A DNA stretch of 47,419 nt from an uncultured Candidatus Saccharimonas sp. (GCA_943358095.1 CALRGT010000006.1:1-47419); one strand, 5' to 3'. Numbered from the stretch's first letter, positions 17,936 to 23,113 are shown. Notes: generated from the letters alone by a model not told the origin. A program made the numbers and translations.

Positions 17936-18595
17936 GTGAATCTGACGACCTTGATAGTGATATTGGCAGGAATCATCGTGTTATCTGCTGCTTTGATTTG
18001 GCTGATTCTCAGAGATAAAGACGCTCCCTCCAAGGATAAAAAGAGTAAGCTAAAGCAATCAAAGGATGAAGCCAGTAAGCCTAAGGGTGAGGCTTATAGC
18101 GACACGGCAGAAGCTGATGTTGAGCATATATTTAATGATGAGTTTCGTGAAGAGCTACGCAACAGGGGTAGACTACACTTCGAGAAAATTATTAGCGAAA
18201 ATGCTATGTTTCTGCAGCAAGACTTACGAATTACCACTTCTCAGCTCAATGACTACATGAAGGACGAGATTACTCGCACTCTTCAAGAAGAGTTTACTAA
18301 GTACGAAGAGTCCATTGCTGATGCTAAGAAGATAGCTATTGAATCTATCAACAAGACTCAAACTGTCATAGAACAACAGAGACAAATGCTTGGTGATCAG
18401 CTACAAAAACAAATTGCTGGAGAAAAGGATAGTTTGTTGTCGAGATTTGACGAGAACATGGCCGAAATTGTGAATCATTATGTATTGGCAGCAATTGGAG
18501 ACCAGATTGACCTCAGTGATCAGCTAGAATATATCCTTAACGATCTAGAGGCCAATAAAGAACAAATTATTGAGGATATTCGTAATGGAGCATAG
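17936..18595 (+). CDS. Membrane-anchored coiled-coil protein, probable stator (subunit b-like) of the F1-like cluster
   Basis: N-terminal TM helix followed by a long charged helical region; occupies the atpF position before the delta-like and alpha genes and overlaps the next gene. Confidence 0.55.
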   Translation: MNLTTLIVILAGIIVLSAALIWLILRDKDAPSKDKKSKLKQSKDEASKPKGEAYSDTAEADVEHIFNDEFREELRNRGRLHFEKIISENAMFLQQDLRITTSQLNDYMKDEITRTLQEEFTKYEESIADAKKIAIESINKTQTVIEQQRQMLGDQLQKQIAGEKDSLLSRFDENMAEIVNHYVLAAIGDQIDLSDQLEYILNDLEANKEQIIEDIRNGA

Positions 18596-19160
18596 CTTTG
18601 TCGTTAAGCAGAAATCCCTAGAGTTGCCATTGCCAGTGGTTAGTCTAACTGATTTGAACAGGTTGCAAAGGGAACTCGAGGCTATTGATGTTTTTTTGAT
18701 TCAAGCGGCTGTTCGTAAATCAGGGGAATCTATGGCTCTACCCAGAACTACCCGTAACCTTGATAACATAGTTCAGTTAAATAAATTGAATTTGTTGGTA
18801 AAGGAAGACAGAGTTAAGTTGGGGGAATTCATTAAATCTGTTCGACTAAATGCCCCAAAAGTTCATATCAGTTTTGCGTCTGATCCTTCTGCTGCGTTTA
18901 TTCAGAAAATTGCATCATGGTTTAGAACTAATGCTCATCCGTTAACAATATTGCAGATAGGCTTACAGCCAACTATAGCGGCTGGTTGTATCGTCCGCAC
19001 AACGAACAGCTACTTCGACCTCAGTATTCGTAAGGATTTTCAGAAAAAACGCCAACTTCTTGTCGAGACAGTAAGAAACGTTAGAATATCTGATCAGGCA
19101 AGAGTTGTGCCTGTGTTAGAGGCTGAACCAATGCTTTCTGGAGTTCAGACCAATGGCTGA
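18585..19160 (+). CDS. ATP synthase delta/OSCP-like protein (divergent)
   Basis: C-terminal QPTIAAGCIVRTTNSYFDLS matches the delta pattern d-x2-l-i-gG-x-i-r-x5-D-x-S; ATG 18585 follows GAGGA. Confidence 0.7.
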   Translation: MEHSFVVKQKSLELPLPVVSLTDLNRLQRELEAIDVFLIQAAVRKSGESMALPRTTRNLDNIVQLNKLNLLVKEDRVKLGEFIKSVRLNAPKVHISFASDPSAAFIQKIASWFRTNAHPLTILQIGLQPTIAAGCIVRTTNSYFDLSIRKDFQKKRQLLVETVRNVRISDQARVVPVLEAEPMLSGVQTNG

Positions 19161-20580
19161 CAACCAGCATTTTAATCGATTAGTCGAAAACGGTAATCCC
19201 GTCGGTGAAGTTATTGGCGTTGAAGGATTTCTTATTAAGGTTAAAGGCCTGCATCCGGTTAATGCTCATGCGCTTATTTTGTTTGAAGATGGTAGCAAGG
19301 GTTTTGTTCATCAGGTCCTAGAGGCTCACGTTGTAGTGCTGCATCTTGGGGTACTGAAGCTTACGGCCGGTCTATTGGCTGTCGTTCAGTATCAAGAATT
19401 GGTTAGCAAAGTTGGCAAAGATTTTATTGGTCGCGTCGTGTCGGTTATGGGTGAGCCACTTGATGGTAAAGGACCAATAGCTGCCAATGCCGTCCGGCCA
19501 GTTTTTCACCCAGCTCCTCCACTCCACACTCGTAAATTACTAGATACGCAGCTAGAGAGTGGTATAACCGCCATTGACTCGCTATTTCCGATTGTTCGCG
19601 GACAGCGCATGGCGTTACTTGGCGATAGCAAGTCTGGCAAAAGTACCCTCGCTACTCAGCTAATCATTAACCAAAAAAATACAGACCAAATTGTGGTTTA
19701 TTCACTTATAGCAAAACGACGAAGTGATATAGATAATCTACTAAAACATCTTGAAGAAAACGGTGGAATGGAGAAGGCTATCGTTATCGTTTCTACTATG
19801 TTTGAGTCTTTGATTGTTAGTTATCTCGCGCCTTATGTAGCCTGTGCTATGGCTGAATATTTGTGGCAAGAATGTGACCAAGATACTGTTATTATTTATG
19901 ACGATTTAACTACTCACGCCCATGTAACTAGAGAAATCGCTCTAATGTCTGGTGTTAGTCCTGGACGAGATTCTTATCCTGGCGATATGTTTTATGCACA
20001 TTCTAGCCTGCTGGAACGAGCCGGTAGACTTGAAAGTACTGGCAAGCACTTAACGAGTATTCCGATAGTATTGGCCGCGGGTGGTGATATAACAGCCTAT
20101 CTACCGACTAACATAATTTCTATAACTGACGGGCAGTGGATATTAGATATGTCGATCTTCCGAAAGGGTATTCGACCAGCTATTAATATGGGGTTATCAG
20201 TTACGCGCGTTGGCGGTGTTGGTCATAATAAACGCCAGAAAACAATTGCCGCACAGACCTTAAAGTTACTTGCAGATTATCGTCAGGCTGAGGAGTTTTC
20301 TCATTTCGGGTCTGAATTAGGACCAGAAGCCCGGCGATCACTAGAAGTTGGCAAACATATATTTGAAGTGCTAACACAAGGTCCAGGCGATACATACTCG
20401 GTCATGGCTCAACAACTAATGCTGGACATTATTCTCAATGCAGAACTAGGGTCCATTCTTGATATCAGTAAGCTTAAGTTAATGTCGCGCGAGGCTGCGA
20501 CAAAAGTTACGACTGAAATATTGTACGAGCAGACGAAGCTTGAATTAAAAAATCAGGTAATGCTTGGAGTTAAGTCATGA
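19153..20580 (+). CDS. atpA: F1-like ATPase alpha subunit (divergent)
   Basis: GRVVSVMGEPLDGKG, SGITAIDSLFPIVRGQR, P-loop GDSKSGKS, IIYDDL, PGRDSYPGDMFYAHSSLLERA, PTNIISITDGQ, GIRPAIN, SVTRVGG. Confidence 0.9.
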   Translation: MADNQHFNRLVENGNPVGEVIGVEGFLIKVKGLHPVNAHALILFEDGSKGFVHQVLEAHVVVLHLGVLKLTAGLLAVVQYQELVSKVGKDFIGRVVSVMGEPLDGKGPIAANAVRPVFHPAPPLHTRKLLDTQLESGITAIDSLFPIVRGQRMALLGDSKSGKSTLATQLIINQKNTDQIVVYSLIAKRRSDIDNLLKHLEENGGMEKAIVIVSTMFESLIVSYLAPYVACAMAEYLWQECDQDTVIIYDDLTTHAHVTREIALMSGVSPGRDSYPGDMFYAHSSLLERAGRLESTGKHLTSIPIVLAAGGDITAYLPTNIISITDGQWILDMSIFRKGIRPAINMGLSVTRVGGVGHNKRQKTIAAQTLKLLADYRQAEEFSHFGSELGPEARRSLEVGKHIFEVLTQGPGDTYSVMAQQLMLDIILNAELGSILDISKLKLMSREAATKVTTEILYEQTKLELKNQVMLGVKS

Positions 20581-21437: not shown

Positions 21438-22741
21438 ACCCTGGAAAAGTGATTTCAATTAAAGATTTAGTAGTCAGGGTCCAGTTTGATGAAGAAGGGC
21501 CTAGTGTTGGTCAAGTTGTGGAAGTGGGCAACGGTTTTGCCACGCAACTTCTAGTAGATCACCTTGAGCCAGGCGGTGTAGCTTTTTGTCTAAACATTAG
21601 GACCGACAGAAGAATTCAGCGTGGTATGGATGTTACTAATACCGGCAAGGGTATTGAGATTCCGGTTGGCGATGTTACTATTGGCCGAATTTTTGACGCT
21701 TTGGGTCAGCCATTAGACGGTCTGGCGCCATTAGACGAAAAGGATTTAGAATACCGTGATATTTTGAAGATTCCAGCCAGAACCAGTAACTTTACCTCTG
21801 CCAAAAATGAGATTCTTGAGACAGGAATTAAGGTCATAGATTTCTTCACGCCATTTGTTAAGGGTAGAAAGATTGGTATTATCGGTGGCGCAGGTGTCGG
21901 CAAGACTGTGCTAACTATGGAGCTTATTAACAACACTGCTGCTGGCGGTCATGGATTATCATACTTCGCAGGTATTGGTGAGCGTATCCGTGAAGGTCAC
22001 GAATTATATGACACACTTCGTTCTAACGACCTACTTAAAAGTACCTGTATGTTTTTTGGTCAAATGAATGAGAATCCAGTTCAACGATCTCTTGTTGGTA
22101 TCTCTGCCGTTGCCTCAGCAGAATATTTCCGAGACGAAAAAGGTAAGGATATATTGTTCTTTGCTGATAATATGTATCGCTATATTCAAGCAAAAAACGA
22201 ACTATCTACTATTCTTGATCAGGTTCCGAACGAAGGTGGCTATGAGCCGACAATATTCTCAGACATAAAAATTCTTCAGGATAGATTGAGTTCAAACGAG
22301 AAAGGCTCAATAACTTCTGTTCAAACTATTTATGTTCCAGCCGACGACCTTTCTGATCCGGCAGTACAGATGATCCAGCATGAGCTTGACTCGGTTATCG
22401 TCTTATCTCGTAAAGTTGCTGAACAGGGTATTCGACCAGCAGTCGACCTTAGCCAGACATCATCGTCGTTACTTACTCCTGAAATTGTTGGAGAGAGGCA
22501 TTATGGACTAAGCGTTCAGGTGCAGGCATTGTTACAAAAATATGAATCATTAAAAGGTATTATTGCAATTATTGGAGAGAACGAACTTTCGCCTGCCGAC
22601 AGAACGGACTTCGCGAAAGCCAAGAAATTGATAGCCAACTTCACGCACAATATGAATGTTATGGAAAAACATAACGGCATAAAAGGTGACTTCTTTACGC
22701 GAGAACAGACTCTTGTTAGCGTAGAAGAAATTATCGCTTAA
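21434..22741 (+). CDS. atpD: F1-like ATPase beta subunit (divergent)
   Basis: [64 protein letters not shown]. Confidence 0.92.
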
Positions 22742-22765
22742 GCTAATGCAAGGAACTATTGGATA

Positions 22766-23113
22766 ATGCCAGAAGATGCACCAAAATCAGCTCCCCATCC
22801 ATCAACCGTTCAAGAGACCTTAGCACTTGCTGCTAAGAGAAATAGCGAGCAGGCAAAATCTAGCGCAAAGATTATGCATGTTAAGGTTTATGCTCCGTTT
22901 AAGACTTATTACGACGGTGACGCAACAAGTATTTCTGCCATAAACGACACAGGTCCATTTGATATTCTGCCGCGACACCATAACTTTATGACGTTAGTAA
23001 ATAAATGCGATGTCATTATTCGGACAGAAGACGGCGACGAATTAAGAGTGCCTATTAATCGCGGTGTCATGCACGTTAAGGCCGACCGAGTTGATGTGTT
23101 TTTGGACGTATAG
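22766..23113 (+). CDS. ATP synthase epsilon-like protein, beta-sandwich domain only
   Basis: VKVYAP-x4-Y-x-G-x-A...GPFDILPRH...GVM-x-V matches the epsilon N-terminal domain; the ORF ends where the C-terminal helices would begin. Confidence 0.75.
   Translation: MPEDAPKSAPHPSTVQETLALAAKRNSEQAKSSAKIMHVKVYAPFKTYYDGDATSISAINDTGPFDILPRHHNFMTLVNKCDVIIRTEDGDELRVPINRGVMHVKADRVDVFLDV

Follow-up and report, generated by a model that had tools for sequence, protein, structure and literature searches.

F1-like ATPases that have been re-used without an ion channel have so far been described in mollicutes only. These bacteria's Type 2 and Type 3 enzymes, in the accounts given within PMC3369863, PMC12994834 and PMC11864180, are the closest known concept to the system reported here. 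According to the relevant passages of PMC11864180, the Type 2 motor is proposed to pass force to the giant surface proteins Gli521 and Gli349, and its gene cluster encodes candidate membrane partners with 12 and 2 transmembrane (TM) segments. Here we analyse a six-gene F1-like cluster at positions 17936-23113 of a 47,419-nucleotide stretch of DNA from an uncultured Candidatus Saccharimonas sp. (GCA_943358095.1 CALRGT010000006.1:1-47419). This stretch, hereafter the window, is contig C6 of a genome (G000) of 693,851 base pairs in 15 contigs that is 90% complete. By its sequence the cluster is an old paralogue of ATP synthase. We think it rather likely that it encodes a second rotary ATPase that is functional, hydrolyses ATP, is not coupled to ion flow and serves a surface structure.

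Reports on the candidate phyla radiation (CPR) touch on loci of this kind. The ATPase passages of Kantor et al. (2013, PMC3812714) mention, for WWE3 and OP11, atypical operons whose 'c' could not be recognised; we class these with the Saccharimonadales cluster that the window carries in its bare form (defined below). The preprint of Troman et al. (PMC13278184) records 'ATP synthase components' beside the pam pilus operon; that locus is of the same gene family and synteny, and the running text treats it as ATP-producing and makes no mention of a channel-less paralogue. The main text of a 2026 preprint on unusual CPR beta neighbourhoods (10.64898/2026.10.01.756066) holds no description of the window cluster. 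We found no channel-less F1-like ATPase described for Saccharibacteria or CPR in a search of full-text literature, outside which lay the supplements of 10.64898/2026.10.01.756066 and figure 5 and the supplements of PMC13278184, which may depict the cluster.

The six genes lie on the plus strand as intact open reading frames (ORFs), in the order b-like, delta-like, alpha, gamma, beta, epsilon-like that a preliminary description of this DNA had given. The first gene, b2 (17936-18595, 219 residues), encodes a candidate membrane-anchored peripheral-stalk protein with a TM helix, a Lys-rich linker and a long helix. It is followed by d2 (18570-19160, 196 residues), delta/OSCP-like and recognisable in its C-terminal domain only; A2 (19153-20580, 475 residues), alpha-like and non-catalytic; G2 (20577-21437, 286 residues), a gamma-like central shaft; B2 (21434-22741, 435 residues), beta-like and catalytic; and e2 (22766-23113, 115 residues), epsilon-like with the N-terminal beta-sandwich only. 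The first five genes overlap by 26, 8, 4 and 4 nucleotides, and a 24-nucleotide gap precedes e2. A class-V aminotransferase gene (IscS/NifS-like, PF00266) lies 5' of the cluster, and a gene for an NAD(P)-binding protein (PF13460), then mnmA and alaS, lie 3'. The gap between iscS and b2, at 129 nucleotides, is too small for an a or a c gene, which bears out the earlier statement that the cluster, bounded by iscS and an oxidoreductase, contains neither. Hydropathy likewise agrees that the sole membrane helix is in the b-like protein: a scan found an N-terminal TM segment in b2 only, and flagged two hydrophobic core stretches of alpha as well.

A complete ATP synthase is encoded elsewhere in the genome. 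Whole-genome profile searches found one match to subunit a (PF00119) and one to subunit c (PF00137), both on contig C1, and four strong matches to PF00006 in two clusters, that is, two alpha/beta pairs. The canonical atp operon (C1:68842-75510) runs a, c, b, delta, alpha, gamma, beta, a 73-residue ORF and epsilon. On NCBIfam equivalog models, the C1 and window copies score 715 and 383 bits for alpha (cut-off 484), 789 and 414 for beta (cut-off 463), 293 and 87 for gamma (TIGR01146, cut-off 194) and 87 and 45 for epsilon (cut-off 67). Identity to the genome's own canonical copies is 34.9% for A2, 42.1% for B2 and approximately 29% for G2. Given two alpha/beta pairs and a complete C1 operon, the window cluster is a paralogue and not one half of a split operon; the genome-wide search for AtpB, AtpE, AtpA and AtpD had been proposed as the check on this point. 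The split operon itself, in which the window would hold the genome's only alpha and beta genes while a and c lay elsewhere, had been named as the case that would overturn the preliminary description, and the four PF00006 matches in two clusters and the alpha and beta scores on C1 rule it out for all practical purposes. Two ORFs without a family match accompany the C1 operon: the 73-residue ORF between canonical beta and epsilon (L011:3262-3483, minus strand, a C1 locus), and a 132-residue ORF that precedes subunit a and could be AtpI-like.

The catalytic head appears to be intact. A2 and B2 both match PF00006 (E 2.7e-68 and 3.3e-63) and G2 matches PF00231 (E 6.9e-31). B2 has a Walker A sequence (GGAGVGKT), the catalytic GER-x-REG motif and the Walker B Asp, all kept in 21 of 21 aligned family members. 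A2 keeps the P-loop GDSKSGKS and the arginine-finger motif LSVTRVGG, again both in 21 of 21. Motif counts such as these, and the gamma, synteny, tree and co-occurrence counts given below, include one unpublished genome (G036), on which alone no claim rests. The family also departs from the canonical subunits in places. A2 is without the first 16 residues of canonical alpha, B2 is without the last 25 of canonical beta, and the acidic DELSEED-type loop (GMEELSDEDK in the canonical counterpart) is reduced in B2. G2 is the most family-specific subunit. e2 matches PF02823 over residues 37-113 (E 4.8e-13), following a low-complexity N-terminal extension of approximately 35 residues, and the e2 family aligns with canonical epsilon (hhalign, probability 95%) over template columns 7-89 of 149 only. 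The canonical epsilon on C1 has 140 residues and includes the C-terminal part, whereas e2 lacks the C-terminal helical domain. In canonical enzymes this domain inhibits hydrolysis. The intact catalytic motifs and the truncated epsilon fit the proposal, made in the preliminary description, of an ATP-hydrolysing motor uncoupled from ion flow.

The cluster is under strong purifying selection. We compared the six genes with those of G003, a genome of the same genus that shares the gene remnant described below, and counted 261.5 synonymous and 26.5 non-synonymous differences. The ratio of non-synonymous to synonymous divergence (dN/dS) is 0.018 for b2, 0.021 for d2, 0.038 for A2, 0.024 for G2, 0.004 for B2 and 0.047 for e2, at dS values of 0.19-0.43. 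Neighbouring housekeeping genes give 0.033 (metG) and 0.023 (alaS) in the same comparison, so that the six genes are constrained as tightly as aminoacyl-tRNA synthetases.

The stator part of the complex is less easily recognised by sequence. A fold model of b2 (mean predicted local distance difference test score, pLDDT, 80) shows a TM helix at residues 3-28 and a single long helix at residues 68-186, joined by a disordered linker rich in Lys. b2 has no Pfam match and only a sub-threshold TrbI match in NCBIfam. Aligned by hhalign, it reaches a probability of 2.4% against canonical b and is not significant against canonical c and delta, and a PDB profile search returned generic coiled coils only, with no solved relative. 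'b-like' is therefore an architectural label only. d2 has a weak C-terminal match to TIGR01145 (E 2.3e-4), its family profile aligns with the canonical delta of relatives over 65 C-terminal columns (hhalign, probability 88.7%), and its true start may be the ATG at 18585. Complex modelling, another of the checks proposed earlier, was run on the stator part. A model combining d2 and two b2 chains (residues 60-219) scores 0.61, and its best control 0.29. The mark that it passes is attained by 58 of the 80 solved complexes and by 2 of the 110 mismatched pairs; its runs agree in at least 68% of contacts, and the partner pLDDT is at least 63. Because the model was built on custom alignments, this calibration holds only roughly. 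The predicted interface places the b2 C terminus (167-218) on the d2 C-terminal domain (96-174), the b-delta geometry of solved enzymes.

The F1-like cluster family is widespread in Saccharimonadales. Strong gamma matches (E 1e-183 to 3.5e-58) were found in 32 of 41 genomes of the same order; the remaining nine comprise eight with canonical gamma only (E 5.6e-15 or weaker) and one with none. G2 shares 52-99% identity with orthologous gammas from the corresponding syntenic position elsewhere in the order. Among species-representative public genomes, a relative is encoded in at least 555 of 599 candidate stretches, and the best 80 of those stretches are nearly all labelled Saccharibacteria or Saccharimonadales. 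An even sample of 301 genomes of the phylum contains 14 carriers: 11 of 15 from the same order, 1 of 2 from another order of the same class, and 2 of 284 elsewhere. Relatives' canonical operons, of which 18 were fetched, all have the canonical gene content. One genome, G031 (96% complete), gave nothing, canonical or F1-like, when queried with gamma at E <= 1e-5 or with beta at E <= 1e-20, and may be without any F-type ATPase. Two others, G013 (C5 and C2) and the unpublished G036 (C3 and C2), each have two copies of the F1-like cluster (loci L050, L059 and L060); at L059, the second copy in G013, a three-TM gene is absent, and what follows is a 1902-residue protein on the opposite strand.

Phylogenetic analysis of beta sets the window family apart from the canonical enzymes. 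The tree (55 sequences, 430 columns, LG+G4, 1000 ultrafast bootstraps, rooted on alphas) recovers the family as monophyletic, 22 of 22 tips, with support 94. Canonical betas, those of Saccharimonadales included, group together (98), as do three N-type or N-type-like betas (95). The F1-like beta of Mesomycoplasma hyorhinis lies elsewhere and is not sister to the window family; these four are the only N-type and mollicute comparators, and no Type 2 sequence is among them. Support is 80 for placing the window family outside the remainder of the betas, a position that may come from a long-branch effect. The tree had also been among the suggested checks, and its outcome agrees with the scores above, in which the window subunits fall below every NCBIfam equivalog cut-off. 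A different second cluster is present in a genome of another class (G049:C1:167500-186000, L166, 6264-11350), encoding a 173-residue TM protein, a 188-residue protein, alpha, gamma, beta and a short epsilon; the beta of this cluster lies closer to canonical betas and groups weakly (support 67) with the F1-like beta of M. hyorhinis.

Neighbourhoods across the phylum, whose comparison the preliminary description had likewise called for, show a conserved synteny of which the window is a variant. In relatives the order is metG, tatD, two small genes, iscS, a gene for a three-TM protein, b2, d2, A2, G2, B2, e2, a gene on the opposite strand for a protein of approximately 325 residues, and a block of genes for single-TM proteins; the three-TM gene, the opposite-strand gene and the block are each variable. 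The single-TM block matches the description of the Pam pilus operon in the text of PMC13278184. Across 80 named loci, the three-TM gene and the Pam-like block are both present in 49, both absent in 5, and the three-TM gene alone is present in 1; none has the Pam-like block only, and 25 are uninformative on at least one side. The window is of the minority 'bare' form, with only a stump of the three-TM gene and no Pam-like block adjacent. A divergent Pam-like block is found elsewhere in the window's genome (C3:71442-77211, L064). It comprises three tandem paralogues of the gene that ends the Pam block, together with one match along the full length and a weak chaperone-like one; all three genomes searched from the same genus conserve it, and a genome of the same family has matches to parts of it.

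The absence of a candidate membrane-partner gene from the window is a secondary state. A three-TM protein of approximately 280 residues is encoded by the first operon gene in 13 of 19 resolved loci of relatives, and its gene also heads the operon in G208, from another order of the same class, and in G054, from another class of the phylum. In the window, a stump at 17807-17908 on the plus strand corresponds to the last 30 or so codons of this gene and is not a functional ORF. It aligns with positions 253-282 of 282 of a hidden Markov model (HMM) built from 13 full-length family members (one from G036), at E 5.6e-4 over 19,041 six-frame genome segments, the third-best match genome-wide. Moreover, it lies in frame, on the same strand and at the syntenic spot, and tblastn matched 17813-17902 with 8 of the 13 queries. 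G003 carries the same stump with a Leu-to-Arg change, and the start codon is not conserved. In other bare genomes the remnants differ and are individually weak: G035 has pieces from both the N and the C terminus, and G012 has one from the N terminus. The bare loci are scattered on a concatenated alpha-gamma-beta tree (FastTree), which makes several independent deletions likely. The preliminary description had regarded the cluster as having no rotor; we find instead that an ancestral three-TM gene was deleted to a stump, and that a paralogue is kept on contig C2.

The three-TM family shares one feature with subunit c and lacks another. All 80 family proteins have the arginine of a GRNP loop between the two C-terminal helices, and no column of helix 2 is more than 9% acidic. 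The canonical c of these organisms has the same GRNP loop together with the helix-2 Glu in 16 of 16 cases. The protein encoded first in the operon has a helix (signal or anchor), a domain that faces outwards, with a phage-decoration-like fold, and a c-shaped hairpin. The paralogue in the window's genome was modelled (pLDDT 73), and the outer domain of the model resembles phage capsid-decoration and head-fibre proteins (8qsy_JI, Z 12.5, root-mean-square deviation (rmsd) 2.8 Å over 118 residues; 7kmx_a, Z 11.1, 3.9 Å over 124). The hairpin superposes on c subunits (6tmh_H, Z 10.0, rmsd 1.5 Å over 71 residues; 2x2v_A, Z 9.7, 1.6 Å over 69), unrelated helical hairpins score alike, and hhalign against canonical c aligns 13 loop columns only (probability 38%). 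Copies of the outer domain are also found in large proteins. One is in a 1963-residue protein of G031 (L186:6962-12853). Another is in an 1895-residue frame, stop to stop, in the window's genome (C2:98488-104172, L063), which also contains approximately eight repeats of the domain of the opposite-strand, 'tail-fibre-like' neighbour that the cluster has in relatives.

The paralogue kept in the window's genome, which we call type B, is a full-length gene at C2:83621-84496 (HMM E 1.2e-53) with approximately 30% identity to the operon-linked type. It is directly upstream of a gene for a 2343-residue, single-TM, surface-type protein. Indeed, in 9 of 9 loci examined the type B gene is directly followed by a gene for a protein of 1542-3318 residues, and 8 of these loci have ileS-rplU immediately before the type B gene. 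Among genomes with a resolved rplU site, a giant protein stands there without a three-TM gene in 4 of the 5 that have the operon-linked type only, and neither is present in 3 of the 4 that lack the ATPase.

Retention and loss of the three-TM family go with those of the F1-like cluster across relatives. Of 32 genomes with the cluster, 28 yielded a family member, and the misses are G001 (68% complete), G019 (81% complete), G004 (contig ends at b2) and G003 (contig end). In each of seven bare genomes (G000, G010, G012, G018, G022, G023 and G035) the only family match is an unlinked copy. No full-length family member was found in any of the six genomes with a resolved iscS-mnmA junction lacking alpha, gamma and beta (G011, G014, G017, G020, G026 and G031). 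The other three of the nine genomes without a strong gamma are uninformative or were misclassified: G038, G002 and G007, in which the contig ends next to iscS. G038 had been counted as lacking the cluster and was reclassified, since its iscS, three-TM gene, b2 and d2 run into a contig end; it is a 29th carrier of both. The statement that the same-genus G002 had lost the cluster was withdrawn: iscS, ileS and rplU were not found either, and both loci are probably unassembled. At G011:C38:1-6659 (L176), positions 2806-3919, only a diverged stalk gene (38% identity) and a delta-like gene (28%) lie between iscS and mnmA; without alpha, gamma, beta and epsilon, this locus is a snapshot of the cluster decaying.

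We suggest the following mechanism. An alpha3-beta3 head with a gamma-epsilon shaft would be tethered to the membrane by the delta-like protein and the single-pass stalk protein, and ATP would, most likely, be burnt to turn the shaft. With no a subunit and no carboxylate-bearing c of its own, the system would not move ions in the canonical manner. In the ancestral and majority form the membrane partner of the shaft is probably the three-TM protein, whose operon lies beside the Pam-pilus genes. In the window's genome, where this first gene is deleted, the likely partner is the type B protein from C2:83621-84496. The likely partner adjoins the gene for the 2343-residue surface-type protein, and the motor output therefore probably serves a cell-surface structure; that output may be directed to the giant protein here and to Pam pili in other genomes. 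The motor may do a mechanical job, as the preliminary description had proposed.

Several points weigh against this proposal. The c-likeness of the hairpin is plausible and not established: unrelated hairpins score like c subunits in the model comparisons. b2 has no homology to subunit b detectable by Pfam, hhalign or PDB profile search. The modelled b2-d2 interface resembles solved b-delta pairs, so that its pass may partly reflect likeness to solved complexes. The motor is linked to the C2 paralogue and the giant protein through co-occurrence in at most 41 related genomes; these are kin, and the counts overstate their independence. Independent losses were counted on a tree that bears no support values. 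Type B may have a separate role of its own, as G039 and G030 carry both it and the operon-linked three-TM gene. G003 shows no member of the three-TM family; its contig ends approximately 180 base pairs before the expected type B site, and it consequently neither supports nor refutes the C2 link. For that reason we withdrew the statement that G003 keeps the motor without a three-TM gene.

Other explanations of the cluster have to be weighed against the same evidence. The cluster might be a decaying relic, heading for pseudogene status after loss of the membrane gene and pilus neighbours. The first operon gene is indeed deleted, and the diverged stalk genes that are all G011 keeps between iscS and mnmA show that the cluster can decay. 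However, since that deletion the six window genes have stayed intact with dN/dS values of 0.004-0.047, constrained like the neighbouring aminoacyl-tRNA synthetases; bare six-gene clusters persist in several separate lineages; and no inactivating change at the catalytic residues was seen among the 21 aligned family members. Decay is thus strongly disfavoured, and we give it only the slimmest chance. A working enzyme could instead be an export or assembly ATPase in the manner of FliI/FliJ, energising secretion or assembly of the giant protein or of pilins, with the three-TM protein as a substrate adaptor or anchor and not a rotor. A2 and B2 do score 180-200 bits on FliI/SctN models, the cluster is linked in genomes to Pam-pilus-like genes and the three-TM family to giant secreted-type proteins, and the text of PMC13278184 reports no dedicated trans-envelope assembly machinery for the Pam pilus. 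The same text gives the Pam pilins Sec signal peptides, however; scores are far higher on F1 than on FliI models, and gamma, epsilon, the delta-like protein and the stalk are all kept under strong selection, which points to F1-style rotation. We consider an export role unlikely.

Rotation could also be put to a more conventional use, if the second F1, with its own stalk, docked on the canonical c-ring and subunit a to form a dedicated, uninhibited, ATP-driven proton pump. The GRNP loop, which a gamma-epsilon foot would be expected to touch, is common to canonical c and the three-TM family, and e2 is without its C-terminal domain. Yet the six genomes without the second head keep the canonical operon where examined and are without the three-TM family; this joint loss ties the second head to that family and not to Fo. 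In addition, b2 does not resemble canonical b, the subunit that has to bind a, and in no genome examined does the second head replace the canonical one. Docking therefore seems decidedly improbable. The second rotary ATPase uncoupled from ion flow that we favour also has a more specific version: a surface-machine motor that evolved from ATP synthase in Saccharimonadales independently of mycoplasmas, its head turning a ring of carboxylate-less hairpins whose outer domains engage Pam pili or giant proteins. This version we put forward tentatively, as a doubtful possibility for now.

The sequence upstream of b2 and some nearby features call for comment. The spacer between the iscS-like gene and b2 (17807-17935, plus strand), which includes the stump, has an AGGTGG ribosome-binding site before the GTG start of b2 and probably holds a promoter or 5' leader. 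It differs from its counterpart in G003 by four substitutions and one terminal indel, at flanking-gene dS values of 0.19-0.43. A scan of 17600-23400 gave 13 promoter-like matches where 14.4 are expected and 2 terminator-like matches where 3.4 are expected, so that promoters are not above chance. In G003, the iscS-like gene (G003:C3:20637-21782) is reported with one in-frame TAG, and its ORF call stops three codons before the end of the window counterpart. Downstream of the cluster, an ORF at 25514-26011 (plus strand, 165 residues, no family) has 79% protein identity to the same-genus relative at dS 0.82 and dN 0.11; its neighbours have 95-99% identity and dS 0.13-0.33.

The window family is a phylogenetically separate family of re-used F1-like ATPases, in tiny epibionts for which attachment to hosts and their exploitation are a central question. 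If the surface-machine version is correct, ATP hydrolysis inside the cell would be converted to movement, tensioning or assembly of the structures with which these epibionts hold their hosts, and in the window's genome, as a natural variant, the motor would work with a type B ring protein paired with the 2343-residue protein. The bare form, the repeated independent deletions and the joint gain and loss with a membrane family and giant proteins point to concrete, testable partners. Window-type genes are also easily mis-annotated as ATP synthase and can distort metabolic reconstructions of CPR genomes.

How does the window system compare with known ones? It shares with the canonical F1Fo enzyme on C1 the alpha, gamma, beta, epsilon N-domain and delta C-domain families, the gene order from the stalk gene on, and the catalytic motifs. 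It differs in having no a and no carboxylate-bearing c, a truncated epsilon and a stalk of unrelated sequence. As in N-type F1Fo, a second F-type enzyme stands beside a canonical one. The N-type operon, however, is ordered beta-epsilon-(I)-a-c-b-alpha-gamma (we confirmed a, c, b and the beta-epsilon start on Cereibacter and Acaryochloris replicons), and the window subunits reach 386 of 752 bits for beta and 321 of 750 for alpha on the N-type models (TIGR03305 and TIGR03324) and lie outside the N-type clade.

The preliminary description had pointed to the repurposed F1-like clusters of Mycoplasma. By model scores the window cluster falls outside both the Type 2 and the Type 3 families, and the resemblance is one of analogy. 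Like the Type 3 F1-like X0 enzyme associated with MIB-MIP (Mycoplasma mycoides MSC_0618-0622 / MMCAP2_0575-0581), the window system is an extra alpha, beta, gamma and epsilon set beside a genuine F1Fo, without a or c, and is associated with membrane proteins and a cell-surface system. Its scores nonetheless fall short of the cut-offs of the MSC_0618, MSC_0619 and MSC_0622 families for beta (369 bits, cut-off 570), alpha (262, cut-off 520) and gamma (16, cut-off 95), and it has a delta-like protein and a stalk and no 12-TM protein, whereas the reverse is true of the mollicute seven-gene clusters. With the Type 2 enzyme, the G1-ATPase of Mycoplasma mobile gliding, the window system would have in common an F1-derived, ATP-hydrolysing motor. 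B2 is without the 200-300-residue N-terminal extension of Type 2, however, the window scores are 334 bits against a cut-off of 850 (MMOB1670) and 311 against 600 (MMOB1660), and there is no sign of dimeric chains or a PGK partner for the window cluster. The solved G1 beta of M. mobile (9io5_A) matches B2 at 280 bits, and canonical F1 betas, the best solved relatives, at 357. In contrast to the mollicute versions, the window family retains a stator that can be recognised and, in the majority of genomes, a c-shaped membrane partner, and would be a cleaner system in which to study how a rotary ATPase is re-coupled to a non-ion output.

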